From NCBI GenBank assembly GCA_050084515.1, contig CM114271.1:42222001-42286000 (forward strand): 64,000 nt of DNA, read 5' to 3'. This stretch comes from Blasia pusilla (lineage: Eukaryota). Made by a program: the position numbers and the translations under genes. Positions 1-49,105 of the stretch are shown one piece after another (the stretch's first letter is position 1; every line of letters begins with the position of its first letter). Below the pieces are notes generated by a model. It was given only the letters and a program-made list of their open reading frames with translations, had not been told where the DNA came from and did no database searches.

Positions 1-560
1 TCAGCCAAACCATCCGCCTCTGGATGATCTCGAGACGTGGTCCAATGATCAATCAACGCCTTGTCACACAAGACCTGAAACTCACCCCAAACTCAGACTC
101 TGGTCGGTCAAGACTTGGTGGTGCACCAAAATGACTAAGCACTCTATCCAAAACGCATACGCCGTTCCTCACTTGCCTTGTCCGTAATGCCACCAACTCA
201 ATCCACTTGGAGAAGTGCTCCACCATCACCAACACATATCGATGATGTAAATACCAACGGTAACGGTCCCCAAAGTCCACACTCCAACGGTAACAACCCC
301 ATAATAGGCAAGGGGTGTAATTGTGGTGTAGGGGCATTAAATGATGCCCTCACCCGGTCACAAACCATACAACGTGACACCAACCATCTGCACTGAGTAT
401 GCATGCCACGCCACCAATATTGGCCAAGGAGTAAGCTATACGACGCTTTACCCCAAAATGTCCCAACTCCTCATGGGCATGTCGCACAATGCGCTCTCTC
501 TCGAGCCAAATGTGGCACTACTGTACTCTACCATCCTCCCACACGCGGAGAATATGTGTT
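1..560 (-). pseudogene. Retroviral-type integrase (HHCC zinc finger plus core), frameshifted
   Basis: HEELGHFG..YWWRGM..CMVCDR; YVLVMVEHFSKWIELVAL; LDRVLSHFGAP; SRDHPEADGLAE, spread over several frames. Confidence 0.9.
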
Positions 561-769
561 CCTCCAATCGATACCTCTTAGCACGTTGAAGAACACGGTC
601 TCGCTCCTTGGCACTCACTATGCCTGGCACCATACTTGGTCCGTAGGAACTCCAACACCAACGCATCATCATGAATATCACGCTGATCCGCACCACCATC
701 TCCAACCTTAGGATCGGAAGGTGGCCATCTACCCCTCGACTAGAGTAAGATATCATGTGGTCCTCCATA

Positions 770-2300
770 CTAGAGTCCACCTAACCAACATGAAAAGGCG
801 GATGCATGCCAACCTAGCACCATCTCCTCATCAACCTCGCCATGCCATCTAGCCCCAGTTGTATCCTCTTGGCTAGTACATGGGTTCCTACTCAACCCAT
901 CAAGATCAAGGTTGGCAACCAGGTCTATGTACCACCCGGAAGTCATACTCTGTAAGATAAGAGCCCACCGTGCAAGCTTCCCCGTAAGCTTGTCCGACTC
1001 CATCAACCACTTGAGCGGTGGTGATCAGTAACAAGGGTAAAGCGGTGCCAAACAAGTAACACTTAAAGTGTGCCACAGCCCCACACTCTTGCCAAGCACT
1101 CTCCCTCATATGAACTATAGCGCGACTCATTGCATTATTCGAACGACTTGCATAGGCCACCACAAACTCCATGTGCTCATCATCATGTTGTGTCAACACC
1201 GCCCAAGTCCCAACCTACTCCAATCAATGTGTAATCGAAATGGGCGCCCTCGATAGGTCTCCTCAAGATAGGCGCCGCCACCAATCGGGCCTTAAGCTCC
1301 ACAAAAGCTCTCTCTGATCATCTCCGCAAAGTGCCACTCTTGATCTGATTTCAACAATTGGTTCAAAGGCTTTGCCATAGCACTAAATCCCTTCACATAC
1401 CTCCGATAGTAGTTCGCCAATCCCATGAATGCTCGAACTCTACTCACATCTATCGGACGCGGAATAAGTGCAATAGCCTCCATCTTTGCTTGCTGAACTC
1501 CCAAACCACCTGGATAGATCACATGACCCAAGTACTCAACATCCTCATGGAAGAACTTACACTTTCCTGGATGCAAACGTAGACCATGAGCTTTCAACCG
1601 CTCAAACACCATCTCCAAATGTATCTGATGCTCCTCCACCGTGTTACTGAACACCAAGATATCATCAATGTAACACCGAACAAAATCCAACCCTGCTAGG
1701 ATCCTGTCCATCACTCTTTGAAACTCGGCAGGTGCATTCTTCAACCCAAAGGGTAAGAATTTCCACTGGTACAAACAATCCTTGCCATGAGAGTTGACAC
1801 CCCAAAATGCTGTCTTGGCCTTGTCACTCTCCCGAATCGGCAATTGATGGTATCATGCCCGAAGATCCAAAGTACTGAAAATCTTTGCCTATCCCACCAC
1901 ATCAAAGATCTCCTCAGGTGTAGGCATGGCATACCTATGGGCCTTGGTTTGCCAATTGATAGGACGGTAATCTCCACACATCCGCCTATCCGTGTAGTTG
2001 CCATGCATATCCTTTTTAGCAGGCATGACAGTGGTTGATGCATACTCTCCATGCGACAACTCCACTAATCCAGCCTCCAAAAGGTCCAACGTCCTACTCT
2101 GAATCAGGTCCCTCTCCATATCACTATATCGGTAGGGACGACGGAAGATTGGCGTATCACTAGCCAAATCAATCCGTATACCGGGTCCAACCAGAGAACC
2201 CATCTCCTTCATGCTAAAGGCAAAACAACTCCTATAAGCACGTAGGAACTGTGTCAAGCGTCGTTTCTCACCTCCCGTAAGCTTGGGCCCAAGTAATGGC
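770..2300 (-). pseudogene. Gypsy reverse transcriptase and RNase H, frameshifted
   Basis: ORFs 1889-2347, 1292-1843, 906-1199 and 770-1006 give PIFRRPYR, RRMCGDYRPIN, KTAF, PFGLKNAP, YIDD, KCKF..VEYLGH, RAFMGLANYYRRY, VVAYASR and KLARWAL. Confidence 0.93.
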
Positions 2301-2599
2301 TCCCAAGTCTCCTCCTTTGGCATACTAGAGGGAGAGGACGATGCCATTGGCTACTCATAACCCACTCACAAGATGATACACCCTTAGCTACACCATCATC
2401 TCGAGCAAATAACTCCTCCACCAAAGATGAGCAACCAACTCCACATGCCCACCATTACATCCCATTTACTCCAAGGATGCAAAATACTACTCTCCTCGCT
2501 TTGACCGATGCCTCTACCATCCCGGTAGCCATCGAGCTCATTACAAGGGGTGGAAGACCCCAGACATAGTCCGAAGTCGATTTGCTCGCCATACCAAGA

Positions 2600-3545
2600 C
2601 TCAAAATCCAAGTCAAACAATTCAGGTCCATGGCCCGACCCAACACATGACGTCGTGAAGCCTCGAAATAGAAGCAACCATTTGTCACGCCAAGAGTAAA
2701 TCCCATCGCACGCTCTCTCTCATCAGCGTTAGGCTCCACCAACTGTCGCACATGAGAATCCCATACAAGCCCCGGACCACCTTCCATGTAGGCATGTGAC
2801 GCGGGAAAACTCACAAATGTGGGTAGTGCCATCCTAGGTTGGCCCACATGGTTCACCACTGCCATGGGTAACCGATCAATAACCCTCACCACTTGAGAAA
2901 GTCACCCAGTATCCAAGATACTCTCCACTGTAAGGCGAGGATCCCACTGCACTGCATCATATGCTCGACGTAGAACCTCCCTAGGCAACAAGTTTGTCCA
3001 CCACAAGCGTGGACGATGTGCACGCGAGCCAACTCGCGCTGCATCCAACAACACCGCTGGTCCAATCCAAGAGCGCACCTCATGAACACTCGCCATCATC
3101 CGGGTCCGAGTGTCATCCAACAATGGAACATTCTCTAGAATGTAAGCTAGAGCACGTGCCTGATGAACCTGAAGATGTCGTAACACCCGTAACATCTCCC
3201 AAAACAATCGAGACCTAGGGTCATGTAATCCCTCACCACGACCAGCACGTGTATGACCCTGACATGGCCATCCAGCAATCACCAAATCCACAGGACCAAT
3301 TCTCTCAAGGTCCCTGCGCCTCAACAATGCAATGTGTGATGGTAAAGCACGCTAGTACCCACGAATAGCTGATGGCGGCAACAACTCAGGATATCTCCGC
3401 ATCAATCGACCAATATGTCGGGATGAGACTCTGGGCCGTCTCATCTTGCTCCACATACACGTATCTCCCACAGAATACCGGCCTGCAATATCTGACCAAA
3501 TCGGTGCTAATCCCACCAAAGAGATCTAACACACAAATGCCCTCC
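2600..3545 (-). pseudogene. DNMT3-like C5 cytosine DNA methyltransferase domain embedded in the retrotransposon polyprotein
   Basis: Motif I ICVLDLFGGIST (~3505-3540); motif II YVYVEQD; motif IV GPVDLVIAGWPCQG (PCQ at 3259-3267); motif VI YILENV (3127-3135); motif VIII SRAHRPRLWWTNL; motifs IX/X ERERAMGF...SRRHVLGRAMDL. Order and wording parallel the DNMT3 catalytic domain. Confidence 0.9.
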
Positions 3546-3899
3546 GCGGATCGCCATACAATGGGTGTAGTATCCAAAGGGGATAACCCAAATGGGCAGA
3601 AGTAGGAGTCCGCCGTGGATCCTCCTCTTCCTCGTGAGGTATAATGACCTCACACCAAGCCTCTGCACTAGGTGATCGCCTCTGCCGTAGTGCACCGCTG
3701 AACTCCAAAGTGGCACATCCAACGATGAGGATGCCTTTGCTGCAAAAATAGGGACCTCCTCTTCCTCCTCATGCAGGAGAATCCATAGCGAAACATTACC
3801 CTCCAAAAGTCTCTTGGCCAAGTGACTACTCCATCTGAAACCAACCACAGATGCTAACACTTTGTTGGGAAGACCCTCTGGTCGAGCCCCGAAATAAAT

Positions 3900-5060
3900 C
3901 TCACAGAACTTGGCTCATACGTCCATCCCGGACCGCCAACGTGGTCTATAAGACGCTGTCTCGACCCAATAATCCATCTGAAAACCCATCGGGTAACATC
4001 GCTCCTCCAACTAGTACATCATACGACTCGGTGATGTGACTACCGCAGATACTCCCAACCGGGAGCTATCATCGCATGATCTGGTCTCAACTGTACAGAA
4101 AACTTCTCCCGTGTCATGAATTGAGACCTATCATTGGCTCCTCCAAGTGATGTTTGAATCTGGAATGGGCAAGGCTCAAGCTCTGACCTCCAAATACCCA
4201 AACCAATACATGCCTCCTTTCCCAACATCAAAGGTTGGGCACCAGAGTCTAACAAGACTCTATTTGGTCTATACACCTGTCTTGTAGGACTCACCAATCG
4301 GAAGATCCCACTCCGGTTGTCCAACATACATACACCAGGTGTAAGCCTCTCACGATCAATGGTGGCCGGGTGGTAATGCATCCATCTTCGCCGCCGCCAT
4401 TTCCGCCAAGTAGCACTGGTACTCAATGCTACTCCTGACATAGAGGGTCGCTCCACCGCAACACCCTCATCCACCTCAACACGTGTAGCAGTAACACCCC
4501 CACGTTCACACAACGTAGCTGCTAACTGAAATACAAGAGCTAAGTCAACTCCTAAAGCCATCAGCTCCGTGGCCGAAAAAAACGGGATCCCAACACCGAA
4601 GTTGCCATCCGCACATCTTGCATTGATCTTTGCATCCGTGTCTACTACACGCGATGTAGATGCCTCAGTCCCCACTGTCGACTGAATAGGCTTCGTGGGA
4701 ACCATGGATGGAGTCCTAAGCACCTCAGACAACAAGAATGACTGGGGAAGCCTAGCTTGCCTTCCAGACTCACCCCTCTATGGGTCCAACTCCACAGTAG
4801 CACCACGTGGCTCGACGCTTTCGAGTGGCTCCTCTCGAATCGCGGTGATGCCTCAACTTTGCCGCACTCGCCATATAAGAGAGATCATCCCCTCCATAAG
4901 AGGTGGAAGCCCCTGCTCCCGAACCTGATCTATGCTGGATACCAGCCATAGTAGCCAACTTCTGCTCCAACTGCTCAATCCTGGCAGCCATAGCTGAAGG
5001 AGGACGTGTAAAACCAGATAAGCGAGTAGATGGAGAATCCAACTCCATCTCTGATGACAT
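3900..5060 (-). pseudogene. Gag-like region and retropepsin aspartic protease of the DNMT-carrying element
   Basis: ORF 4040-4735 contains RVLLDSGAQPLMLG; YDVLVG follows after a frameshift. Coiled-coil-like ARIEQLEQKLATMA lies upstream. Confidence 0.7.
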
Positions 5061-5949
5061 AGAAGTAAAGGTAGGCAAGTCTCCGAAGATAAGAAAAGAC
5101 ATACGGAACGTGGTTTGGAGAAAGCATGAGGATAATGAGCAAAGCAAAAGTAGTGGAGAGATGAAGATTAGGCAATACCGAATTTATGATTGAAAGTTAC
5201 TATAAGAAAAATATAAAAAGTAATTGAAAAAGAAAAGTGATGGATATGGTATCGGAAGAGGTGGCTCAAGAATATGAATTTCTAATGTTCTAAACGTATG
5301 TAGGGGCGAAACAATAAGGTAAGGAGTTGAAAGAGCAAGGAAGACTTTTGGGAGGAATTGACCTCAAACAAACCCGTACACAAAAATAGGCGCCTACAGA
5401 GAAGGAATAAAAAGTAGAAAACCTACTTGATATCAAAAGAACGAGCTCGTCAAGACGATCAAAACAAGCCCATACACGCCCAAAACCGACATTCGAGAAG
5501 AAAGTTATGAAAGAAATTGGAAACACCAAAAAAGAGGATGTGGGGGAGGAAGTGAGGCACCCACCAATGACCGCTATGAGGGAATGAGTTCGTAATGTTG
5601 GGCCCAGCCCGTATCAAAAGATCCAAAAAAGCAAGAGGAATCCGTTAAACCGATGGTAAGATGATATCACTCTATAAGGAGAGCGCTATGTTTGAAATTG
5701 CATATAAGAATCTATGAGCACATTTAGGAGAGAAGGAGGTCCAAAGATCCCAAGAACTTTGGAAATCTCAATCTTAAGTGGAAAAAAGAAGAATCCAAAG
5801 TTCAAGCTTGAGAAGATGAACACATTGGGCCTTAAATTGAAAAGATTGGATCACCATGGAAATAGTTACAAACAAAATTCTAAACCTCCGCCATAGTCCT
5901 CCTCCTCCACAAGCCCCAAAATCATAGTTAATCTATCAATAGCAATCCA

Positions 5950-14149: not shown

Positions 14150-17100
14150 TGACTCACTTGTGCGGGCCCAACTTTAGGAAATGAGATAATAAATAAAAGA
14201 TGGGATTAGAAAAGTAATGTAGTGGATTGGTGCTTTATTAAACAAAAGCAAAAGTAGTCTTGGTTGGTCGCTAGGGTCGTTGGGATAGTTTGGAAGATAT
14301 GAAGTGAATAAAGGAGGATATTTTGGAAGAGATAAGAGGTAATCTACTTGTGTCAAAATATGATTGGATAAGCCTTGAGAAGAAGCCATGTGGCACAAGA
14401 TAAGATTAGCCCTATTTCGTACTCTTGTGGATCCCTTATGAGTATAGAAAGAGGAGGGACCTTCAAGGGTTCATCACCTTCTACTTCATATCTTGAGTCT
14501 CTCGTGTCACTCTTGAGTGTATGGCTTTGGGATTGCTTGCTCTTCCAATGAGAGTGGATTATCCCTCGTAGGAGAATAACTTTACTATGGTGTAGTCTTT
14601 GAGAGAATTTTAGAGTGTGGTATTTGTGGAGATGAGAGACTTGTCACCTTAGATGAGTTTAGTCAAACTAGAAATAGTGGATGGTTTGGCTTGTTATTTT
14701 CCCAATGAGAGCGGATTACCCCTCTTGGGAGAGTAATTCCGCTAAACCCCATTCTAGAGGAGACTAGAGGATGATTTTCAAGTATGGCTAGGGGTCGAGC
14801 ACGAGTTATGCCCAATTTTCCTTTCCTTAATCCGTACTACGTCAAGATTCTTTTTGTAGATAGGCACTGGTTCACTCGCTATCTAGTTTATCATTTTAGA
14901 GACGCGTTCATGAGCCCAGTCATGCAATCTCAAGATCCAATGATTCTTCCTATAGTCACGTACGGAAAGACATGGGATTGTACTTTGTATGTCCTTATAT
15001 AGAAATCCATGGGCGTCAATAGGCCTGCTCGGGTAGGGTTTAAGAACAAAAATGCTATTTTTCTTGTGTACAAATATAAAGTAGTTTATAGGGACTTCAT
15101 AATTAGGAATTTCGGGGTTCCATGTTATGAAGAAGTCATCGCCTCGGCACTACCATTTTGGAAGAGATAAGAGGTAATCTACTTGTATCAAAATATGATT
15201 GGCTAAGCATGGAGAGGAAGCCATGTAGCACAAGATAAGATTAACCCTATTTCGTACTCTTATGGATCACTTGTGAGTACATAAGAAGGAGGGACCTTCA
15301 AGGGTTCATCACCTTTACTTCACATCTTGAGTCGCTCGTGTCACTCTTAAGTGGATGACTTTGGGATTGTTTGCTCTTCCAATGAGAGTAGATTACACCT
15401 CTTGGGAGAGTAACTTTACCATGGTCTATTCTTCAAGAGGTTTCTAGAGTGTGGTATGTATGGAGATGAGAGACTTATCACCTTAGGAAAGTTTAGTCAT
15501 ACTACAAATAGTGGATCGTTTGGCTTGTTATTTTCCCAATGAGAGTGGATTATCCTTCTTGGGAGAGCAACTCCGCCAAATCCCATTCTAGAAGAGACTA
15601 GAAATGTTTGTCACGTCTGGATAGGGATGGAGCACGAATTGTGCCCGATTTTCCTTTCCTTAACCTATATCACGTCAAGATTCTCTTTGTAGATAGGCAT
15701 TCGTTCACTCGCTATCTATTGTATCAATAGATAGCGAGTGAATGAATGCCTATCTAGATAGCGAGTGAACGAATGTCTATCTAACTTGTATCACTTTGGA
15801 GACGCGTTCATGAACCAAATCATGCAATCTCCAACTCCGATGATTTTTCCTATATTCACATACGGAAGGATATGGGATTGCACTTTGTATCTCCTTATAT
15901 AAGAATCCATCGATGTCAATAGGCCTGCTAGAGTAGGGTTTAACAACAACTGTGCTATTTTCCTTGTGTACAAATATAAAGTAGTTTATAGGGACTTCAT
16001 AGTTAAGAATTTTAGGGGTTCCATGTTATAAAGAAGTGATCTCCTAGACACTACCATTCATGATTCATGTCGTGAGAGAATGAAGGGTTTATATAATAAT
16101 TCTGTAGTGGAAAAGGAGAACTTCTTATAGAGTTTGAGTTACGTCAACCACGTCTGCTGCAGCTAGAAGGTTCGCCCTTACTCGAAGAAAGATTCTCGAG
16201 ACGAAAAAATGATGCTTCTAGTGAGAGCTCTTTGAGGCGGTACATTGTGTTTGCAAGTTGGAGTCTTGTTAAGATAACTACTTTTGGTAGTACTTGATCA
16301 ATGGGAACTGAGGGAGTTGAGGATCTTCTCCAAACTTTGATAATATTGTTGAGCCAGCAAGGAGGAGTTCACATAGGAGAGCAAAGATCAACAAGGGCTC
16401 TCCAAGCGATTGTAAAGAAGTTGGGGAGATTTGATGGGAGGAACATCATCAAGTATGTTAGAGAGTGCATCTGTGAGATGGATGTAAATCGCGTACTCGA
16501 AGGTGACATGGTGTCAAGTTTTGAGTTAGTTGTGATATCAGAGATCCGGAAAACCGAGTTATTCCTTGAGACGGTTTATGAGAATTTGGAGGACAAGCTT
16601 TTCATAATGTTGGCAGACAAGATTGAAGAAGGAGGTGTCAGCACTAATTGGAAGAAATTGGAAGAAGTTGTTGCTATCCTCACAAAGCAAAGTCGAAGTA
16701 GAGGTAGAACCGCACTATTCAAGTCGGAGGTATCAATTTCAAATCCATTGCCTAAGCCCGTGTTAGCAAAGCTTGAAGATTGTGCTATTGATGAGTTGGT
16801 GAAAGATTTGAGGGAGTTGAGTGGGATGATCCAGTGGAATTTGAATGTGTTAGAGCATACCTAGCATAAGAGAAACATGTGAATTGGTAAGATGCTAGTG
16901 TGGAGGAGAAGGGGAGACGCGAAAATGATGGTGTTGACTTTGAGGAAGCTACAAGAAGAGTGAGGACCACAAGAAAGAAAGGGCAACCGGAGGCGCAACC
17001 ATGAAGAGAAGAAGGGCCTTCTACATCCGAATCTATGATGGATTCTCATATGAAAGAAGGTGGGATGAAGGAGAAAGAATTGAGGTCTCCTCCGAAGACC

Positions 17101-18910
17101 AAGGGTAGGACTCCTACATACAAGTTGCAGTTTTATATAGAGACAAGCACGAATTTGAAGGAGATTCTTGAGGAGAGGATTTTGGATGCGAAAATAGAGT
17201 TTTCTTTGAGGGAAGTCTTGGGCATAGCCAAACATGACTTTCATGACTTGATCATAGATGTGATCAAAAGGAAGAGGCAAATAACTGTAAATATGGTGAT
17301 GGTGAGCGCATTGGATACTGACATCATAGAAGAAGAAGATGAAGATCTTGGCCAAGTTTTTGGACAAAAGCTTGACTTACAGGGAGAAGAGGCGAGAGTA
17401 GGAGAAGCCTTGATAGAACAAGGTGAAGAAAGGCACAATGGTGGACACTATTCTTGGTCATATTGGGCGCGTGCAACGACGAAGGCTAGAGTTTGTCTAG
17501 GCTCTCTCCAAGAGTCAGTCCTGACTCTCGTTGATCGTGGTTCGGAGATCAACATCATGTCGCAAAGTGTGTACAACAAAGGGATGTGGCCAATTGATAC
17601 ACGGCATGAATGGGTACTATATGCGACTCACGACCAAAAAGTGAACTCTACGGTGCTTGTCCAACTGTCAAAACTTGTATCGAAGATGTGTTGATTGAAC
17701 AAAATTTCTTTGTTCAGAATGGAGCTGCTTATCGTATGATTCTTGGGAAACCTTACATCACAGCATCTAGAATGGAGACGAAAGTCATGGATGATGGATC
17801 TCATTATGTCCGTATTAGAAGTTATGATGGAACGAGATTAGTTCAATTCCTTATTGTACGAGTAGGTCATGAAAGGAATAGGGAGAAATTGAGAGATGGT
17901 CCTATGAAGGTAGAGAAGGATTTTTCGGATTTTTAGTTAGCATTCCTGTAGAGCCGGAATATGGGGTGCAGAGAAAAGAAAGAGTCTTTCGTTAACAGAG
18001 GGGGAAGAATCATGTATGTTTAGATCTGGGTTTTCTCAATGTTTTTCTTCGTGGTCTAGTAGATTCCAAATGATGAAAGAAATGAATGAGAAGAAAAGAG
18101 GATTTATGAAAATAAAAAGAGGGTTTGTTAAAATATGAGGGTGTTCTATTAGATGAAGAGTTCATTAGTGGGATGTATGAAGAAGAGGATTTTGGAGATA
18201 GTCTTGAGGAGGTGTTCACCCAAACGAGCATCGATTCATTAAATACAAGTTTGATTATAATTCACTCGTGTGAGTTGCATGAAGAAATATCAAGGTTCAT
18301 GGAAGGAGAAAATGGATATGAATCTATGGAGAGGGAATCATATGGGCACGATTTTGCGACAGATGAACATCCCATGGAAGCACAAGTGCACACAAAGTAC
18401 AAGACGGTAGCTCGGAAAGTGAAACCGATGGCTACTCAACAATCTGAGGGATCTGGAAAACAAGTAGAATGTGCATCGATGGAGCCGAATCTATGAGATG
18501 TGAGGAAGATAGGATAAAAGATTACAGAAGAAATACTGGATCATCTGCAAATTGGAGGGGGTGAGTTTCTTATTGAAATTGAAAGAAAAAGCTTCGGGAG
18601 ATTTTAAGAAGACATTATAAGGCTTTTTCTTTTACTATACAAGAAATTGGTTGTGTAGACGCAAGTGTGGTGGCATCAATGGTAATTTTCACAGTTCCAC
18701 ATGCGCCTTGGGATCTGAAACCCATATAGTATCAAGAGCTATGATTCCCAAGTTGATTGAGTTATTGAAGGAGAAGATGGAGATGGATATCTTAGAGCCA
18801 TCTATGGGTCCTTACTTGAGTTGATGGTTCACTGTGCCAAAGCAATCAGGAGCTCTCCGGTTCATTCAAGATATGCAACCCGAAAATAAGGTAACCATTT
18901 GAAATATGGC
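14150..18910 (+). mobile_element. Second Ty3/gypsy element, 3'-truncated: putative LTR (~14150-16203), gag, protease, start of RT
   Basis: Gag-like ORF 16301-16864 (RFDGRNIIKY); LTLVDRGSEINIMS protease motif in ORF 17035-17694; MILGKPY; YKTVARKVKPM; WFTVPKQSGALRFIQDMQP RT start, cut at ~18910. The LTR-like part recurs inverted at 63183-64000. Confidence 0.85.
14321..16057 (+). repeat. Head-to-tail duplication (~836-bp period) within the putative LTR
   Basis: ttttggaagagataagaggtaatctacttg starts at 14321 and again at 15157, and the two copies align throughout. Confidence 0.9.
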
Positions 18911-19239
18911 AGCAGGGCCTAGAATACCTGGCAAAACCATGGCTCGCTCTATTGCGGGCCTAGTAGACATCCCTGCCATCCTAGCAGCCTCAACTTGCCA
19001 TGAATCTAAGGTGGACGGACCAAACACAGGCTCCAAGGAAAGGTCCACCACCTCCTTTGCATCCACCTTTGAACGTGAGGCAATAACACCAACTCCACCC
19101 TCACATAGCATAGTGGCCACCTAGACAACCTCGGCCAGCGTACCTCCCAACATCGTAACATTGGAAGGGGAAAACCATGGGGCGTGGTACATGGAATTGG
19201 CCGCCTCCAACAACGTACTCGACACATTCTCTCTTTGTA

Positions 19240-20009: not shown

Positions 20010-20182
<173 letters not shown>

Positions 20183-21000
20183 CAAAATTTTGGTTTGGTA
20201 GACTTGATGAATCCTTTCCACCTCTTTTTTTGGCCATTCTTGAGAAATCTACCTTCCGCTTATGATGTCCACTTGGTCTCATAGGGAAACAATCCTAGAT
20301 TACATAGGTTAGAATGGATTCTTGACGCATTGAACATTGACAAACTTGATTTATGTGGATGACTATTTGGACTTTGAATAACATTTAAATTAATATGATA
20401 ATGTGTACTCCTTTGCTTCCTTGCACACAAAAAACAAAGTGTGTGAAGCCAAGGACATTTCTATCATTTCACAACAATGGGGAGGTTCACGTTTTTGGAC
20501 TATCATATCGTACCTCACGTGAATCATGAGCAAACCTAAAATCATTTCTTGGTAAGAATTCTTTGGTATCCTCATGTCACCTCATACTGGTTAGGAAAAT
20601 ACCCCATTAACTAAACTAAAATACATGACTTGGTGGAATTTTGCAAGCTACTACATGCACCGACCTCCATTATGTACATATCGAAGGCATCATTGATGTA
20701 AGTTTACTTCGACTTCAAGATGCCTTCTCAATTGGTCGTTTACCGATCTGAATCGTTACGGCTCTTACAAACACTGCCCTTTTTTTCCCTCTCCACACGT
20801 AGAAGGCATTTAAGTATCGTCCACACGTGTACACTAAATACTTTCTGTTTATGGTATGAATCAGACCTTACATGACTAAGGACTCCACCGTTAACTCGAT
20901 CATGAAACGTCGACGATGGTCCAATTTCGAGTGCCCCCAATCGGAAAATCATGCAGAGACAAACGGTCCGGATCTCATCTTAAGTTTCACGCGTATCAAT

Positions 21001-21765
21001 TTAAAAGTCGCCGCCACCCATATCGCCGCCCCAGTCACCCGTGTCCCCGCCGTAATCGTTGTCCAGCATCTCCCCCACCAAGAGCCCGCCCAGAGCACCG
21101 CCCATCAAGCCGGTGCCAAAACCGGCACCGCCCCTGCGAGGCCGTTGCTGATAGCCACTTCCCATGGGAGGCCCGTACCCATACGGCGTTTGCTGCATCG
21201 GCGGGTAGCCGTAGCCATAGCCCCCCAGACCTCCGCCATACTGAGGCTGGAATCGAGGAGCGGAGAATGGCGCTTGATAGCTGGCAGTCGCTTGCGGAAA
21301 GGCTACGGGAGGATACTGGCTTCCATAGTGCTGTTGTTGCTGAATCGTTCTCAACTCGCCCAATTGTGCAGACATGATTAAACTCCCTTTCACTTTTCCT
21401 GAGGGTCGGATGACGGAGAAAGCCCTGATCTGGGCCTTACTACCATCTCTGTCAATCTCTCGGAGAGGAATGGTGACAGTTCCCACCAGTTTCTTCTGGA
21501 GAGTTCCGTCGCTGTATATCTGCACCGTGATGTAGCAGGGCCGTCCGTTTCCTTGCAGGAGTTGCTCGTCGCAGGTTAGTGTCAAGGGTGCGTTCCAGGT
21601 TGGGTTGAGCCCACCGCTGGTATCCACTCTAGTCGCTTTCTGCTTGTTGCCATAGATATACGCCACCACGTAGCACTTCTGCTCTCCGAACATTTTCACC
21701 TTCTTCAAGTCGCTCGCCGACACTAAGTTCAAATTTATCGTCCTCTCTTCCACTAGTGAACCCAT
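21001..21765 (-). CDS. SRC2-like C2-domain protein with a Pro/Gly/Tyr-rich C-terminal tail (254 aa, intronless)
   Basis: MGSLVEERTINLNLVSASDLKKVKMFG...TRVDTSGGLNPTWN...VGTVTIPL...RPSGKVKGSL forms the C2 domain. The tail GFGTGLMGGALGGLLVGEML is typical of SRC2. First ATG is at 21765 and the ORF is intact. Confidence 0.88.
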   Translation of the reverse strand: MGSLVEERTINLNLVSASDLKKVKMFGEQKCYVVAYIYGNKQKATRVDTSGGLNPTWNAPLTLTCDEQLLQGNGRPCYITVQIYSDGTLQKKLVGTVTIPLREIDRDGSKAQIRAFSVIRPSGKVKGSLIMSAQLGELRTIQQQQHYGSQYPPVAFPQATASYQAPFSAPRFQPQYGGGLGGYGYGYPPMQQTPYGYGPPMGSGYQQRPRRGGAGFGTGLMGGALGGLLVGEMLDNDYGGDTGDWGGDMGGGDF

Positions 21766-37009: not shown

Positions 37010-37590
37010 AAACGTTCAAAAATTACTAACTCTTTTTTGGACCCAAACCATTAGACCTTCTATGAAAAAATGATTTTTTAAATTTTTCATCTAGTCCAAC
37101 TTTGTCATCTTGAACTGAAATTTGGCCCACGTGATCCCCAAGATGCATATAATACTCTTGCCAAGTTTAAGTCAAAATAGATTTGTGAGAAAAATCTAAA
37201 AAATTACTAACTCCTTTTTGGACCTGAACCATCAGACCTTCTATAAAAATAAGGTTTTTCATTTTTCATCTTGTCCAACTTTGTCATCTTGAGCTGAAAT
37301 TTGGCCAACATGGTCCCCAAGGTGCATCTAGCACTCTTGCCAAGTTTTAGGCAAAATGAATTTGTGAGCAAAAGCTAAAAATTTCTAACTCGTTTCTTGG
37401 ACCCGAACCATTACACTTTCTATCAAAATAAGGTTTTTTCATTTTTCACCTTGTCTAAATTTCCCATCTTGAGTTGAAAGTTTTTCTACATGGTTTCCAA
37501 GGTGCATGTTCCACTCTTGCCAAGTTTCAACTTAAATGGAGTTGTGAGGAAAACCTCAAAAATATGTAAATACCTTTTGGACCCGAACTT
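37010..37590 (-). repeat. Same 180-bp unit as 31005-32150, inverted, ~3 copies, cut on the right
   Basis: aaattactaactc-ttttggacc-like motif at 37019, 37201, 37380 and 37560 is the reverse complement of ggtccaaaaaggagttagtaattt in the left array. Confidence 0.93.
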
Positions 37591-37595
37591 CGCTA

Positions 37596-38319
37596 GATGT
37601 GCCACTTTGGAGTTCAGGCGGTGCACTACGGCAAGAGGCTGATCGCCTAGTGCAGGAGGCTTGGTGTGAGGCTGTTATACCTCACGAGGAAGAGGAGGCC
37701 CCACGGCGGACTCCTACTTCTGGTTCAGTTGGGTTATCCCCTTTGGATACTAAACCTGGAGGGAATTTGTGTATTAGATCTCTTTGGTGGGATTAGCACT
37801 GGTTTGGCTGCAGTGTTGCAGACCGGTATTCCTGTGTGGAGATACGTGTATGTGGAGCGAGATGAGACAGCCCAGAGAGTCTCATCCTGACATATCGGTC
37901 AGTTGATGTGGAGAGATCCTGAGTTGTTGCCGCCATTAGCTATTCATGGGTACCAGCGTGCTTTGCCGCCACACATTGCATTGTTGGGGGCGCAGGACCT
38001 TGAGAGGGTTGGTCCTGTGGATTTGGTGATTGCTGGATGGTCATGTCAGGGTCATACACGTGTTGGTAATGGTTAGGGATTACACGATCCTAGGTCTCTA
38101 TTATTTTGGGAGATGTTACGGGTGTTACGACATCTTTAGGTTCATCAGGCACGTGCTCTAGCTTACATTTTGGAGAATGTTCCATTATTGGGTGACACTC
38201 GGACCCGGATGATGGCGAGTGTTCATGAGGTGTGGTCCTGGATTGGACCAGTGGTGTTGTTGGATGTAGCGCGAGTTCGTTCGCGTGCACATTGTCCACG
38301 CTTGTGGTGGACAATCTTG
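37596..38319 (+). pseudogene. Second copy (fragment) of the retrotransposon DNMT3-like methyltransferase
   Basis: Reverse-complement homolog of ~2990-3720: ICVLDLFGGISTGLAAVLQTGIPVWRYVYVERD...GPVDLVIAGWSCQGH...YILENVP...RAHCPRLWWT in one frame with several stops. Confidence 0.92.
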
Positions 38320-38709
38320 GAGGTGCGGTAAGAGGAGAGGAAGAGAGGAAGAGAGGAGAGAGGAGAGAGGAAACTACCTTCAACCGAAATAGATACTTTT
38401 TTTTTAAGAGAGTTTCCGTTGGGTTGAAGAGAGGAAACTTTTTGTGTGAATTTTTTTGCACTTTTTTGTTCAGTTATTAAGCAATCCCACAGTTTTTTTT
38501 TTCTCTTCCATATTTTGGCAACCCATCTGAGTCCAACCGGTTGCAAATTGCACAAAGTATACAAAACTGAAAAATGAGTGGAATCATAAGTGTGGAATCA
38601 ATCACTTTTTCCATCCAAGGTCTGGAAACAATCTACCATTTGCCCTGGGCTGAATAGAGTTCAAGCTCAAAGTGAAGGTTCTTGAAAAATGAAAGTAAAA
38701 TCTAAAACC

Positions 38710-41700
38710 TCATTTTGCATCCTCAAAGTGGTTTTTTAAAATACTTCGTACTTCTTTGAGGGACAGAATTGGTTGGTGGATTCCTACTCCTACCTCCGAC
38801 TCTCTTAAAACTACTAGCAATACATAGTACATGTGCTTACAAGGGAAATATCTTTTGCCACTTGTCTCTCTTTGGACAAAGTCATCACATGAACATGTGG
38901 GAAAGAAACAGATGTGCACCACATACACCCCTGTGATACTTGATTTACCGTCTTGTTCCTGACCCAATACATCCTTCCTATTCCATTGCCACTCAAGACA
39001 TCTTTCGTGGCGATGATCTCCATTTTTGCCTCCTGAGCTTATGCAATTTGCTTTGCTCTCTCCACCGTTGGCCTACACATTCTGTTTCTCTTCATCCCAT
39101 TTCTAGACTCAAACAAAAATAGTGGATTGAGATCATCCACCTTCTCCGGGAACATGTTGACATCAATCTTGGGTTGAATACAAAATGCGAAGGTCTCTGT
39201 AATGCGAACATGCTCCAAACTTCCCCTGTCTACGAGTCTGAAACCGGCACTTGTAAGATTGTCCACTTTGTCTTGAGTGCAGTTCGTACCTGCGGCGATG
39301 GGCCAAATCGTGGGGGTATTCCCCGGAGCTCCAATGGCAGCCGGATAAGACTTCCGGAAAGCGCAAGATTCATTTGGGTAGAAGAAGTACTTCACTTGAT
39401 CCCCGGTCCTCGTGAAACGATCAAAGGTTTTGAGACCCCAAAACCCAGGTAGTGGTCGTCCAGTCCTTGTATAGTTCTGATTTAGGAAAGTGCCGCATGC
39501 TCTCCTAATGCCATCAGATCCTGCCCTGCAGGTGGGTCCATGTCCTAGGTTGCTCCGAGATATATGCCACCGTTTTAGGTTGCAATCCACCTCCATTACC
39601 AGAATCCCATATTGTTGAACCACCCCAATGACAGGATGTTGCGAACTTCCAGCAACGGAGGGCTTTTGAAATAAAATATTCACTGATTTTGGAGAAGTAA
39701 CTCCATCACGGATTTGGGACGGGTCCGGGGTCCCCGAATACCTAGGCGGCGTAATTTCCTCATCCAAATCAATCACCGGATTCGTTCCTCGATGCTGCCT
39801 CTTCACCTGCCTGAAGTCAAGATACTTATCTGGTCTCCACGAGTCTCGCTCGAGCTGCTCTACCACCATCTGTATGGGACGTCTTGAAACCCGCCCACGA
39901 ATATCCCCACCAACGTGTACGTCTTGCTCGAGGGGAGTTCTAGCTACGCACCGGTTGAAGGCTTCCACATATATTTTTTCATCACCAGATCTCACAGCCG
40001 CTCTGACATAGAGCTCGTAGATCGACGGCCCCCTTCCTTTTGTTATGCCTTTTGTGAGGAAGATATGGGATAATGAGACTGTAGCGTTGCTCTTGCTTGG
40101 TCTTGTTGGCATGCCTATACAAGTGAAATTTGTTGGCATGCTTGTGACGACCTTCAGGAGGAATGAACACTTTCTGCTCCACTTGTGTTGGGGTAGAGGG
40201 CATTTTCATGAACGTTCAATCCCTACAACGACGGCAATCTTAGAAGGGAACGAAAATAACTCAGCAGTCAAAGACATAAGCTACCGGTCGGAACCAGACG
40301 GGTTGCAAGGCCGAGGAATCCCATGAACGACTCTGCGACCCGTCGGGTCTCGACATGTTGCAACCCTAAACCCACCTACTGCAACCCGTCGGATTCAGAC
40401 GGGTTGCAAGGCCGAGGCATCCCATGAACGACTCTACGACCCGTCGGTTTCCGTCGGGTTGCACACTCGGCCAACCCGTCGCATCCCACAGCTTGCTTGG
40501 TTTTTTCGGTTTGAAATCCCTATAGTTCCCACGCTTCTCAACTTGAGCTGCAACTTTACAAACAATTCTCTGCGTGAGCTTGACAAGACAAAATAGTGAA
40601 CTCACCTGCCGCATGAAGTTTCCCCATTGTCTCATACGCATATCCATTAACTCAACCAAGAACCTGACTCTTTGTACTTCCCTCAATCGCATGCTTCCTC
40701 CACCACCCATGAAGTTCTTCCTGGCATTCCATGGCCTGCTTCAAGGTTTTGTTGTCCTTGCAGCGTTGGAGTAGAGTGACATGCTCTGTCCTCTTATTCT
40801 CCTTGATGCAAGATTTGGTGTACTGGGTCACAGACAGATTTGGTGTACTGGAAAGCATCCGACCTTTCCCTCTCCGGTTGAACCTCTCCACCCCAGAACA
40901 CTTCTCGGATAGCAATCCACCCAGGTTGTGCATTGTCCGCCATGAACCCATAAATTTGGCCTTTTGTTTTCCTTCACCACCTCCAATAAGAGTAACCAAC
41001 ACATCTTCAAACTGCCAACGTCTTCTGCCTTTACTTCATAGAAAAATATAGTTTTTAGTCTCTTCTCCACATGGTCATAAACATGAGCACCCATCGTCAA
41101 CCATCCGTTCAACACTCTGTAACAAATATCAAAGCTTACCCAACTGCCGTAAAGATCTTGCCCTTCCCTCATTCGATCTATAAGATCAAGGCCACTCGAC
41201 GGACCCGTGGTTGACATTTTGAAGACATAGGCCCTGGATCCCTCGCCTCCTTGGCCCATGAACTGCCACCTCTGAATGAATGGAAATGTGGAATTGGCCT
41301 TGATTCTGGCGATGGCATCCATTTCGGCCGTCTTTCCATCCAGAACTCGTATTTGACGCAGCAAATTCCGGAAGCATTCAAGATCAGCGAGAAATGCGAG
41401 ATTTTCCCAAAGTTGTTTCTACTCAGCCGCCGTGATCTCGCCCTGTCCAGGAATTCCAAGCAATTATTCAAAAATTTGTGATGCCGTTGTGAGCTTGATC
41501 ACTCCGGGCTTTGAACCCGGAGAGTTTATGTAGACCTCGGCAACTTTCTTCGCCACATCCTCCTTGATGTGTCTCTGAATTGCATCGGTCACAGGATGAG
41601 TGTGGGAGCCAACATGAACTGCTAGCCTTGTGTACTCTAATGTGGAGCCCAAGTCGTGGACAATGAAAAATATGTATGCAGAACACGCTCCAACGCAGAA

Positions 41701-42441
41701 GGGCGATGCCTGACAATGAGGACATCGATGGCCTCCTGGAGGTATGGTGGCACCGACCTCGTATGGAGTTTCTACATTCTTGGGGGGGAATTGCGACGTA
41801 TTGGCTCGCCCGTTGCGCTCTAGATACGGGCATGCTGGACTTCTACACTCCAAGGCTCCCACACATTGGCGGCTGGAGACAATCCAAGGACCATCTGGAA
41901 TTGAAGCACTAGTCCGTTGAAGCCTGCACCATCGATGATAATCAAACTTTCTATCCATACCCTTCAGGCGTCCTCCGTCTTTCTTTTGAGCAGGAGCAGC
42001 AAGTGGAGGCAACTCAAAAATGCAATTACCATCGTACGTGGGCGGCAGCTCGTTGACAAGAATGTGCTTGAACATTTTCAAGGCCAGAGACGAAAGCAAA
42101 CTATTACCTAATACTCGCAAGAGGAACGAGTAGGCGGACAGAGGGCCCGGTTGGTGTCCGACAGATCCACTGAGGTTGATAACATCCAGAATCTCTTCAG
42201 GAAGAACATTGATACGAGCGTGTGAAGTTGGAGTCGAAGCCGGATGTACTGGGCTAAGAGTTGCAAACGTAGAGCTCGTAGCACTAGGAAATTCTCCATC
42301 GTCTACTTGGGAAACAGACGAATTCAGGGGCAGGCCGTAAACTCTGTATTGACCATTTGCTAGAGGTAGGAGATTCCATACTTTACGGTCTGCAGTCACT
42401 GGCTGGACTGTCTCACCTATTATGTCCTCCGTACCCTCCAC
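38710..42441 (-). mobile_element. Mutator-like (MULE) DDE transposase pseudogene with an N-terminal GCM-like zinc domain and a C-terminal SWIM finger; one 383-nt intron
   Basis: GCM-like region RQCVGALECRSPACP...CPHC...C...VGSHTHP. D1 in WVSFD (41128-41130), D2 in GFMADNA (40935-40937). Intron 40223-40605 (GTGAG...TAG). E in PNTSGAESVHSS (40172-40174). SWIM CSCDDF...PCKHMYYVL (38710-38967). Nonsense and frameshift lesions throughout. Confidence 0.75.
40280..40485. repeat. Cluster of 27-bp palindromes inside the transposase intron
   Basis: Copies at 40280-40306, 40335-40361, 40381-40407 and 40436-40462, plus a half-copy at ~40471, arranged as a 101-bp dimer repeat. Confidence 0.85.
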
Positions 42442-42816
42442 CCTAACATCTTTGGATACAAAGATGGTTCCAATTTGGAGAAGAAATCAAACAGAGAGAA
42501 AATTTTCATCCACTGCTATGAAAGACTCACGAGCTTGCGGTTGAATGATTTCTGATTGAGGAAGGGCCGCCAGATGACTTCCACAAGTGAGCTTCACATA
42601 ATTATCCATTCGCAGAAATTTCGTACGGGAGGAGGGTGAGAATGAGAATTTTTAATTTATAGTGAATAGAAAAATAGATACTCCTGACGGAATTTTACTG
42701 ACAAGATGAAGTTCGGTAGGTGACATTGTCTGACACAATGGATCCAATTCTGTTGCAATGTGTTACCGGATTTGGGAAGCAGAGACGTGGGTTGCGAAGC
42801 ACACTTCATTTTGTTG

Positions 42817-46200: not shown

Positions 46201-46965
46201 AAAATTACCGGCAGCCTTGAAATTGTGGGCTTCGCGGCGTGATGGAGAGACATTCTCCATGTACGACATGGAGATGGGGCAGCACATGTCCAATTGGGAG
46301 GTGGAGAATTGCCCCATTTGGCCTGACTTCAACGACCCTGAAGACATCACCAATAAGGATTTACGAGTGCTTCATGATGCAGTGGCCTCAGGACAAGACA
46401 ACATCCCCAATTTTGTGCAGCCTGAAGACTTCTTCGGAGGAGATGCGGAAGAGCAAGCCCACGAGACAACTGAGTTGGCTTCCAAGGTCCGCACAGCCAA
46501 AGACAAATCCACAGCGGGTCTCAAAGGCAAGGCGAGGGGAGGGAAGAATTCCGAGGCCGAGTCTTCCCAAAGAGAGGCTGAAGATTCAAGGCCAGAGGCG
46601 GAATCGTCCGGGCGAGCGGGGAGAGAGGGTCGGACTAGGTCCTCGGCGAAAAAAACCCCACCAGAGTCTGAGGTCATAGAGACCCCGACAAGCCGTCCGC
46701 AGACTCGGGAGAAGCGGAAGCGAGAGGTGCCAGGGTTGTCCCAAGAAGAATACAATCCATCATCCTTGGGAAGACATAGACAAACAACGACCCGGACAAG
46801 CGTCCTCCTTCAGTTCACTCCTTTACTGGATGAGCTGAAAAGCTTCAGTTCTCAAGCGTCGACACCAGCCATTGATAAATTGACAACGTTGGGACGGAAG
46901 CTCCAACAAAATGGGCACGTTGCTTGGACGGTGAATGGAGTGGTCGGAGAGGTTGCGGTGAAAAC
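43278..46965 (+). pseudogene. Large three-exon gene with a ParB/sulfiredoxin-like domain, decayed and 3'-truncated
   Basis: ATG at 43278; intron 43938-43996. Exon 2 reads RIPLCRLRTMEYVR...YFFIWDGNHKFMAW (motif at ~44318-44347). Intron 44470-45214 has its donor mutated to ATAAGT but is phase-consistent. Long exon 3 corresponds to ORFs 45207, 45806 and 46217. Confidence 0.65.
44487..45199. repeat. Array of 11 full-length 27-bp palindromes (GCAACCCGTCGGA-C/G-TCCGACGGGTTGC) with variable spacers, inside an intron
   Basis: Starts at 44487, 44552, 44616, 44680, 44744, 44808, 44881, 44964, 45019, 45070 and 45136. The first six are 64-65 bp apart (37-38-nt spacers). Confidence 0.95.
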
Positions 46966-46969
46966 CCTT

Positions 46970-47420
46970 AACAAATCGTCGGTAAAAGTTTGCCAATCGT
47001 ATGAATGCACAAACTTGACTCACATCTATAGGACATGGAATGCGTGAGATAGCGTCTCGCTTTGTCTGCTGAACACCAAAGCCACTTGGGTATATTGTAT
47101 GATCCAAATACTCAATCTACTCGTAGAAGAACTTGCACTTGCTTAGATGTAGCCTTAGCCAATGTAACTGCAATCGTTGAAACAACTCCTATAGATGTCG
47201 CTCATGCTCGCTAACGGTGGTGCTAAGGACTGAAATGTCATCAATATAACATCTAGAGAAATCCAGATGATATCCAAATGGTAAGTAACGCCGCTGATAC
47301 AAAAAATCCTTTGTATGAGGAATGATGCCCCAAAATGCCGTCTTTTGCGTACCCTCCAATCTGATAGGTTGGTGATGATGTCTAGTTCAAAGATCCAACA
47401 AACTAAAGACCTTCATCACA
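46970..47420 (-). mobile_element. RT fragment of the same gypsy family as 1-5060
   Basis: HTIYPSGFGVQQTKRDAISRIPCPIDVSQVCAFIRLANFYRRF parallels HVIYPGGLGVQQAKMEAIALIPRPIDVSRVRAFMGLANYYRRY. YIDD and KTAFWG are also present. Confidence 0.88.
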
Positions 47421-48865
47421 AAACTCGGAGTTACTTAAATATTCACCAAATCCATATTAAAAATTTTGAAATGTCGTTAAAATAAAGAAATTGTAACCTT
47501 TTTAAATATAGAGTGAATATTGAGGATAACGATGATAAATTCACATGTCAAATAGATATTATTTCCTATTTATGTACATCAATGCTACTCCTATGCTTAT
47601 TGAGCACCATCAACAACTATGCCTCCTATATTGAAACAATAGATATTTGATATGAATTTGAAGGTGCTGATTTAGTAAAAATTATCTTTTTTTTCATGTC
47701 GATTGGATATTAAATTTATTTTAATTATTTCTATGAGAATAATATATCATTTTCTTCTAGTGGATTTGAAAAAAAAATTGAATTTTTTACCAATTTAATA
47801 TTATTTTGCAAATTTTCATATACAACTACAATAATTTTGGACATAATTTTGCATGATTTGGATTAAAAGAATTAGAAATTTTGTTTTTTTAGGAAATAGA
47901 ATGATTTGTAGTATTGTACTTGGGGAGAGGGCCTAAAGTTTCATAGCTCAAGGTACGCGAGCATATCATATAATACTATTGTGTCGTCCCACGAACGTCA
48001 CAAGGATGCTACCAATTGTGAATTTTCCCCCTTGTTTTCCTTCCTGTGTGGTGGTCTATTTCTTAAGTTTTTTTCTTCTTCTGCCTCTATGTATTCGCTT
48101 CTAAGTTTCCAATCCAGTGTGAAGGCAGATGATGGTGAAATTCTCTAGTTTAATACGTGTAGACTCCGTTAGGATTCATGTCAAGGTCATGATAGCTACC
48201 AATTCGCTGAGTTCTTGGAGATAAGTTATGATTTTCAATTTACTGCTTGATGCATGTATGGTGTTAGGGAAGTGGATTTCTTAATTGATTTTAATTTGGA
48301 TTTTGGCAGTGCTCAAATTCAAAAAAAAGTCATGAAAGTGTTTTGAGATTCAAAAGAACAAGAAACGCAAGGAAGAAGAAGTGTCAAAGCGCTTGAAGGT
48401 TGAAATAGACCAAATCCATCCCATGCGTGCCAAGAAGGCGACACAATCCGGTTAGATTTCTCATTGGGTTGGGAATCAAATAAATAGCCCCTAACATAGG
48501 GATCTATAAAGCCTCAGGCCTCGGGTCTCCATCTTGCTCAAATTTTGGAAATTAAGAAGACTCTCAAGGCATCTTGGAAGGCAATGGAAACATCCCTGTG
48601 AATGACCTCCAAAAAAGATTGAAAATATTTTATAACAGAAGTATAATGCACGTTAAGATTAGCTCTATTGCTTGATCTCTCCCCCTCTCTTTCTGAAGCT
48701 TTTCTGCTAAAGACATTTCTTTGTCACAATCATGAGAAGACCATGATTTTGGGAACAAACTCAAGCAAGTGGGCCGAAAATGAGGAGTTTTATAAGTAGA
48801 AAAGCCATAAGAAGTACTTCCTGCTCCTAGCATGGGGAGAGCTGGGAGGAGGACGTGATAGATAC

Positions 48866-49105
<240 letters not shown>

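Follow-up and report, generated by a model that had tools for sequence, protein, structure and literature searches.

A decayed Ty3/gypsy-type element of Blasia pusilla and its probable family of bryophyte retroelements carrying a DNMT3-like cytosine methyltransferase

The element at the start of the window

In a stretch of 64,000 nucleotides from Blasia pusilla (GenBank assembly GCA_050084515.1, contig CM114271.1, positions 42,222,001 to 42,286,000; the whole stretch is called the window below), positions 1–4997 of the minus strand are occupied by what we consider, with a probability of about 0.85, to be a decayed and 5'-truncated copy of a Ty3/gypsy-type retroelement, whose family polyprotein carries a DNMT3-type C5 cytosine methyltransferase (DNMT) between the protease (PR) and the reverse transcriptase (RT); this figure includes the de novo methylation proposed below. 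All features of the element lie on the minus strand (Table 1). When stop-to-stop open reading frames (ORFs) were read over window positions 1–5200, those of the minus strand encoded, from high to low coordinates, a Gag tail, a DSGA protease piece, three methyltransferase pieces, two RT pieces, an RNase H (RH), and an integrase (IN).

The original prediction, made from the letters of the sequence, had placed methyltransferase motifs in order and on one strand between a DSGA protease and a YIDD RT. Six such motifs (I, IV, VI, VIII, IX, and X) were indeed located there in the canonical C5-methyltransferase order, at 3529–2617, and the predicted range of 2600–3545 fits the domain, which is complete. 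The 149-amino-acid middle piece alone (3351–2902) matched the Pfam family DNA_methylase (PF00145) with an E-value of 1.1e-10 (41.9 bits against a cut-off of 22), far beyond chance. The assignment to Ty3/gypsy was borne out by matches to RVT_1, RT_RNaseH, Integrase_H2C2 (E = 1.1e-5 on 470–198), and rve (E = 5.8e-5 on 349–53), which occur in this order, and the pieces of the window follow the Ty3/gypsy pol order of PR, RT, RNase H, and then integrase. The protease piece of the window had no Pfam match; among the related proteins, Asp_protease_2 was found above the curated cut-off in P0357 and below it in P0047 and P0096.

The window copy is a pseudogene, which makes no enzyme and has no function. 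The open reading frame implied by the original prediction is absent from it: motif I lies in a different frame from motifs IV–X, with the shift near 3432, in-frame stops interrupt the DNMT domain at 3354–3352 and 2904–2902, and the DNMT and RT frames are unlike each other, whereas they are the same in 41 of 54 relatives. The copy has neither terminus, being cut at 4997 and leaving the window at base 1, to which the alignments of related metagenome loci extend. The Marchantia protein P0012 aligns (tblastn) only from residue 396, beginning at window 4997, the blastn alignments to the metagenome loci all end at 4995–4997, and the contigs of two runs continue beyond 4997 with unlike sequence. Because homology to the relatives ends at this point, the capsid part of Gag (the first ~395 residues), the zinc knuckle, and the 5' repeat are missing.

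Table 1. Positions of the parts and motifs of the element, and of a second copy fragment, in the window
Feature	Position	Strand	Remarks
Gag C-terminal remnant	4778–4997	-	without capsid N-terminus, CCHC knuckle, and 5' repeat
Aspartic protease region	4040–4777	-	ORF and DSGA motif; 57–59% identity to PR of P0003 and P0012
Protease motif LLDSGAQ	4255–4235	-	
PR–DNMT linker	3546–4039	-	no recognised domain; P0003 and P0012 are 40–42% identical here
DNMT3-like C5 cytosine methyltransferase domain	2600–3545	-	Pfam PF00145 and motif coordinates; broken by a frameshift and stops
Motif I, LDLFGGIS	3529–3506	-	
Motif IV, GWPCQGH	3273–3253	-	
Motif VI, ILENVP	3141–3124	-	
Motif VIII, SRAHRPRLWWTN	3027–2992	-	
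Motif IX, ERERAMGF	2721–2698	-	
Motif X, LGRAMDLNC	2643–2617	-	
TAG stop at the DNMT/RT junction	2351–2353	-	marks the end of the ancestral Gag-PR-DNMT ORF
Reverse transcriptase	1292–2350	-	RVT_1 E = 1.6e-26 (1852–1292); YIDDIL
RT motif YIDDIL	1672–1655	-	
RNase H	906–1214	-	RT_RNaseH_2 E = 9e-5 and RT_RNaseH E = 6.5e-4, both under the Pfam curated cut-off; collinear with P0003 RNase H
Integrase (H2C2 zinc finger and DDE core)	1–711	-	several frames; runs off the window start
Second copy fragment	37588–38320	+	isolated, 733 bp; DNMT region, starting upstream of motif I and ending at motif VIII

The second copy fragment shares 87.9% nucleotide identity with window 2989–3725 and 85% amino-acid identity with the middle DNMT piece, and neither PR nor RT was found beside it. 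The observed/expected CpG ratio is 0.66 in the element, and the window average is 0.63. Positions 46961–47380 (minus strand) hold an RT fragment of a different gypsy-type element, with 56% protein identity to the RT of the DNMT-bearing element.

Class, arrangement, and distribution of the methyltransferase

The class of the enzyme was assessed with P0001, a natural homolog of 368 amino acids that spans the domain completely and shares 79% identity with the middle piece of the window, and with a profile of 36 diverse family members. In phmmer searches of the Protein Data Bank (PDB), P0001 matched DNMT3A (6e-12), DNMT3B (1.4e-9), and DNMT3C (6e-9) best, followed by tobacco DRM (1e-8), Arabidopsis DRM2 (1.6e-4), HaeIII (3.5e-4), and HhaI (4e-3), with DNMT2 absent among the matches listed. 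The profile likewise ranked DNMT3A (7e-27), DNMT3B (9e-24), and DNMT3C (1e-23) ahead of tobacco DRM (1e-16) and Arabidopsis DRM2 (2e-13), and these ahead of HhaI (7.5e-9), HaeIII (3.2e-7), and DNMT2 (8e-6); it found no PDB chain of DNMT1, chromomethylase (CMT), or DNMT5 at E ≤ 0.001. An AlphaFold model of the domain had a mean predicted local distance difference test score (pLDDT) of 91.1, and among the Foldseek matches listed (the best 47), all were DNMT3A, DNMT3B, or DNMT3C, with template modelling (TM) scores, normalised to the target, of 0.79–0.85 against isolated catalytic-domain chains and 0.40–0.56 against longer chains. Residues C140, E183, R223, and R225 are invariant across the 36 members. 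The predicted DNMT3-like enzyme was thus upheld at the levels of sequence, profile, and predicted fold, with DRM next and the bacterial enzymes after it.

Canonical DNMT3 (DNMT3A/B/C and the plant DNMT3 of non-flowering plants) is therefore the best sequence, profile, and fold match to the element domain, and has the canonical motif order and a short target-recognition region in common with it. The element domain differs in being embedded in a retroelement polyprotein, and, when structurally aligned, shares only 20–24% identity with the human enzymes. Pfam identified neither a PWWP nor an ADD domain in P0012, P0010, P0003, P0030, P0072, P0047, P0096, P0357, P0106, or P0222, and the kinship with DNMT3 therefore concerns the catalytic domain only.

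Scanning of metagenome contigs with the DNMT alignment gave 130 relatives, and 80 loci were kept. Thirteen loci align with the window as one high-scoring segment pair covering at least 4,748 of the 4,997 bases, at 76–78% identity. An RT follows the DNMT on the same strand within 1,200 nt in 43 of the 45 loci with at least 1,500 nt of downstream sequence, and a PR lies within 1,500 nt upstream in 43 of the 45 loci with at least 2,000 nt on that side; the four exceptions are L047, L062, L079, and L080. Continuous PR-DNMT-RT ORFs, for which the original prediction had proposed a search, are present in the un-spliced, intact metagenome ORFs P0096 (2,188 amino acids) and P0357 (2,318 amino acids), each of which encodes zf-CCHC, Asp_protease, DNA_methylase, RVT_1, RNaseH, Integrase_H2C2, and rve in one frame. 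These comparisons support the view that the DNMT is an integral, intronless part of a retroelement family, and not a one-off capture. No support was found for a segment with its own termini or introns, or for a family in which most members lack the methyltransferase, although DNMT-less sister elements were not searched for.

Selection was estimated from pairwise Nei–Gojobori ratios of nonsynonymous to synonymous substitution rates (dN/dS) on tblastn-guided codon alignments, in which frameshifted stretches were skipped. Between the window and the loci, dN/dS was 0.26 for the DNMT (70 pairs, median dS 0.71), 0.30 for the protease, 0.23 for the RT N-terminus, and 0.13 for the RT core. Among the loci themselves (dS about 0.2), the ratios were higher (DNMT 0.58, PR 0.60, RT N-terminus 0.44, and RT core 0.30), as is expected if much of that divergence represents post-insertion decay. 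On these codon comparisons, the DNMT is under purifying selection and is about as constrained as the protease.

The middle piece of the window matched 82 longer proteins at E ≤ 0.001 (best E = 8e-71, 79% identity). Named homologs came from Marchantia polymorpha (many), Calypogeia fissa, Riccia sorocarpa, and three Sphagnum species, bearing out the suggested extension of such elements to land plants; they were mostly 64–79% identical over the aligned parts, with two Marchantia matches at 52%, and were annotated as hypothetical or unnamed, some being called DNA (cytosine-5-)-methyltransferase by UniRef. Judging from these matches, liverworts and mosses commonly harbour the family. The P0012 cluster (≥90% identity) comprises 18 sequences, and the 15 members listed include five models of 1,278–1,281 amino acids, on Marchantia chromosomes 4, 5, and V. 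These near-identical models of the first ORF (ORF1) point to recent activity in Marchantia. In a DNMT tree of 55 rows, built with a quick method, the window piece fell inside a 19-row clade (Marchantia 8, Calypogeia 2, Sphagnum 3, metagenome 5, and window 1) with a Shimodaira–Hasegawa-like approximate likelihood ratio (SH-aLRT) support of 100, within which the Marchantia, Calypogeia, and Sphagnum rows group separately by genus.

Two DNA runs of one organism contained 84,810 and 1,296 contigs at least 95% alike to window 1–5200; these were short and covered all 30 bins, so that the window's organism must carry the family in very many copies. At one premature stop of the window, nearly all of the contig depth shows a different letter. 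No RNA data set was listed for window 1–5000. Two runs guessed to be RNA contained 21 and 12 contigs that were 95–99% alike (including 2666–3078 and 2860–3390); this candidate sign of transcription was discounted, given the guessed label and the 15–16 differences from the window.

Full relatives are ~9 kb long. Two 339-bp direct repeats with TG..CA ends, some 9 kb from each other, were found in five loci (L074, L045, L067, L055, and L006). Furthermore, the 3' repeat is directly bracketed by two copies of a 105–115-bp segment, 89–95% identical, as detected by BLAST in three of four complete copies and from the printed sequence in the fourth. The resulting layout, A1-internal-B1-A2-B2 (L074:1679–10797; L045, L067, and L055), is not the standard long terminal repeat (LTR) layout and is unusual for an integrase-bearing element. 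Target-site duplications of 4 bp (AAGG, TCTC, and CACA), identified by eye, lie outside the whole unit in all three copies with both flanks readable. Next to the 5' repeat, where a tRNA primer-binding site would be expected, 8 of 10 loci share a conserved sequence (CTCAAAGAAC...), and its start is not the usual TGG.

The conserved stop and the proposed role of the enzyme

Where the DNMT C-terminus and the RT N-terminus share a frame (the 41 of 54 sequences noted above), they are mostly 73 nt apart. Translated junctions revealed a stop at the identical place in 21 of 21 close loci, and at the nucleotide level, it was present in 53 of 53 alignable loci (TAG in 36 and TAA in 17), with CAACCC following in 52 of the 53; in the window, the TAG at 2353–2351 is followed by CCA ATG GCA. 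Meanwhile, 12 of 22 long proteins, consisting of Marchantia models and un-spliced metagenome ORFs of a ~50%-identical clade, end 86–138 amino acids past motif X, and the more distant P0096 and P0357 have no stop at the junction and read straight through. A stop at one codon in every copy is not expected of random decay, and the ancestor of the clade therefore had an ORF1 encoding Gag-PR-DNMT and an in-frame ORF2 encoding RT-RNaseH-IN. The description of the DNMT as an integral, intronless pol domain must be divided accordingly: integrity and the lack of introns stood, given the order kept on each side and the un-spliced ORFs, whereas its place in pol did not, because in this clade, as judged from the reading frames, the DNMT forms the C-terminal end of the ORF shared with Gag and PR, so that it is no pol domain in the strict sense.

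In active copies, the DNMT would be made with Gag and PR as a single abundant ORF1 protein, and RT-RH-IN would be made only upon readthrough of the UAG, a step to which the conservation of the stop alone points. If this readthrough is right, the methyltransferase would be made in Gag amounts, not RT amounts. The protease would then release the DNMT, which would travel with the particle or the pre-integration complex and would methylate the new cDNA of the element, or its fresh insertions, de novo. The element would thereby set its own methylation state instead of leaving the choice to the host. The idea of cDNA methylation is that of de Mendoza et al. 2018 (PMC5890265), and the putative function given here combines conservation with this published proposal of self-methylation.

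Several observations weigh against reading the family as retroelements that carry a working DNA methyltransferase. Not only is the window copy dead, but all 80 metagenome loci are decayed too, with a longest ORF of 957 amino acids. The loci were all found via their DNMT, so this sample is blind to DNMT-less sister elements. The term DNMT3-like catalytic domain is well supported, on sequence and predicted fold, as a placement among solved families only, and not as membership of the DNMT3 clade; DNMT4 and DNMT6 may lack solved structures. As for readthrough, RNAalifold gave -16.3 kcal/mol and no convincing stem in ~150 nt downstream of the stop (47 distinct sequences), and the junction UAG CAA CCC fits only five of the six bases of the plant-virus motif, which we take to be UAG-CAR-YYA. 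Finally, the only assayed relative of this kind, the domain of KnitGypsy-Dnmt3 from Klebsormidium nitens, produced no methylation in yeast, a result that its authors regard as inconclusive according to the accessible text of their report (PMC5890265).

This yeast result would also suit an alternative in which the domain owes its retention to a role other than DNA methylation, as a DNA/RNA-binding or targeting module (e.g., steering integration) or as an RNA m5C methyltransferase (e.g., marking the element RNA), and selection alone is silent on which activity is kept. We consider such a role improbable, given that the PCQ cysteine, the ENV glutamate, RxR, and the motif I glycines are intact in the relatives and recognisable in the window, that the four residues named above do not vary among the 36 members, and that the predicted fold superposes on DNA-bound DNMT3A over ~325 columns; against an RNA methyltransferase, moreover, DNMT2-type tRNA enzymes match far worse than DNMT3A (8e-6 vs 7e-27). 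Still less probable is the domestication of the bryophyte copies as retroelement-derived host DNMT genes that are no longer mobile. Several Marchantia copies are annotated as genes, and UniRef names one of them DNA (cytosine-5-)-methyltransferase, but the copies are many and near-identical (the 18 cluster members lie on several Marchantia chromosomes), they keep Gag, PR, RT, IN, terminal repeats, and target-site duplications, most of them are decayed, and the window's organism carries very many copies of the family. The insertion of a host DNMT3 gene fragment, or of a separate element, just once into this gypsy copy is already contradicted and has next to no probability left: although standard gypsy pol has no DNMT and the window copy is fragmented, PR-DNMT-RT is collinear over ~5 kb in the 13 loci and its order holds in 43 of 45 loci on each side, the arrangement recurs in Marchantia, Calypogeia, and Sphagnum proteins, relatives merely 42–50% identical keep the order in one ORF, and the DNMT has a dN/dS of 0.26.

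The gypsy-borne DNMT3 is found in land plants too, among them the model liverwort Marchantia polymorpha, so that its function becomes testable by genetics, and the DNMT3 counts in bryophyte annotations include transposon copies. The encoding of the enzyme in frame with Gag-PR, before the conserved stop, constrains the manner and timing of its production.

Neighbouring features and known elements

Elsewhere in the window, an intact single-exon cytochrome P450 gene of 543 amino acids lies at 57335–58963 (minus strand); the protein is CYP94/CYP86-like and 40–43% identical to its matches over nearly the full length, and all organism-named matches among those listed are from land plants. At 21004–21765 (minus strand), an ORF of 254 amino acids encodes a C2 domain at its N-terminus (Pfam E = 9e-13) and a tail rich in Gly, Tyr, and Pro, and probably represents a host gene. 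Three long ORFs on the same strand (388, 196, and 340 amino acids) occupy a GC-richer stretch at 39039–42486 (minus strand); they have no Pfam match and may belong to an unclassified mobile element. An ORF at 17005–17694 (plus strand) has a sub-threshold DUF4100 match (20.2 bits, cut-off 27.9), which is no evidence by itself; together with a nearby protease-like match to the PR query of the DNMT-bearing element (18890–19222, 30–34% identity), it is probably another retroelement remnant. Long dinucleotide microsatellites, which appear as His-Thr and Glu-Arg runs in the translations, lie at about 20100–20200 and 48700–49000.

A search of 1.84 billion representatives gave 4,268 matches at E ≤ 0.001, 269 of them at E ≤ 1e-30. 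According to local phmmer labels, the best 150 of the 4,268 comprised 75 with RT-RH-DNMT-IN (whole or in part), 18 with PR-DNMT-RT (whole or in part), and 57 with DNMT only. Polyproteins of the type RT-RNaseH-DNMT-IN-PHD were found in Scenedesmus sp. (annotated as pol) and in Haematococcus lacustris, Chromochloris zofingiensis, and Cymbomonas tetramitiformis (hypothetical proteins). The chlorophyte sister group includes P0134, P0328, P0191, P0353, and P0354, together with about 70 unnamed representatives, many of them from metagenome contigs. These green-algal gypsy-type elements resemble the bryophyte family in having a homologous DNMT (34–42% identity, profile E-values of 1e-119 to 1e-158) within a gypsy-type polyprotein, but differ from it in that the DNMT stands after RNase H and before the integrase, and in a C-terminal PHD finger. 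Related elements with the DNMT at another position are therefore widespread in green algae. In the DNMT tree, 21 RT-RH-DNMT-IN rows and 34 PR-DNMT-RT rows fell on opposite sides of one branch with an SH-aLRT of 95; because the tree is unrooted, it cannot tell which order is older, nor one capture from two. A 2026 preprint describes, in its accessible part, Cymbomonas elements ('EpiLTR') whose DNMT lies at the 3' end of pol and forms the sister of DNMT4 (10.64898/2026.05.21.726589).

A broader scenario, which we offer tentatively and think more doubtful than not, would join these groups. An old retroelement line of the green lineage would have captured a DNMT3-type domain once, and this domain would later have come to lie with PR and RT as its neighbours in one architecture and with RNase H and IN in the other. 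The line would have persisted by descent into land plants and would still be active in some of them, as the five listed near-identical Marchantia ORF1 models and the tens of thousands of 95–100% fragments in the window's organism suggest. The bryophyte clade would make its DNMT at Gag levels upstream of a leaky UAG, load it into particles, and methylate its own cDNA. If all of this were true, part of the bryophyte 'DNMT3' signal, and of de novo methylation, would come from transposons.

In a charophyte and in dinoflagellates, retrotransposons are known that encode the same class of enzyme with which hosts silence such elements (PMC5890265). According to the accessible text of that report, SymbioDIRS-Dnmt3 of Symbiodinium resembles the present family in having a DNMT3-type domain in a retroelement polyprotein, and this domain methylates CG de novo in yeast. 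It differs in being a DIRS element with other replication and integration machinery and in its dinoflagellate host, and its authors inferred an independent acquisition (PMC5890265). The closer counterpart is KnitGypsy-Dnmt3, which, in the same text, likewise has an intronless DNMT3-related domain with non-rearranged motifs inside an LTR Gypsy polyprotein, and whose Ka/Ks of <0.2 (PMC5890265), compared with 0.26 here, indicates purifying selection in both. Its terminal repeats are DIRS-like and its proteins Gypsy-like, in the wording of a figure legend (PMC5890265), and the loci related to the window have the corresponding A1-internal-B1-A2-B2 layout. This shared DIRS-like repeat layout is the main reason for thinking the two families kin, and the bryophyte and K. 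nitens families may derive from the same capture; no K. nitens protein was named among the 82 matches of the middle piece or the 80 of a further search. The accessible text makes no mention, for KnitGypsy-Dnmt3, of a conserved stop that puts the DNMT in the Gag-PR ORF, and the host there is a charophyte alga (PMC5890265), whereas here it is a land plant.

Full-text searches of the literature yielded no description of liverwort or moss copies, although some may appear in the DNMT tables that supplement PMC5890265 and PMC12344493; later papers, in the parts accessible, cite the K. nitens report under 'streptophytes' (PMC12344493; 10.64898/2026.05.21.726589). Four points go beyond the original prediction: the occurrence of the family in land plants, the conservation of the stop after ORF1, the unusual layout of the termini, and a large sister group in algae. 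As a kind of element, it was already published in 2018 with KnitGypsy-Dnmt3 (Nat Commun 9:1341, PMC5890265), to which the family described here adds a new member with a land-plant host.

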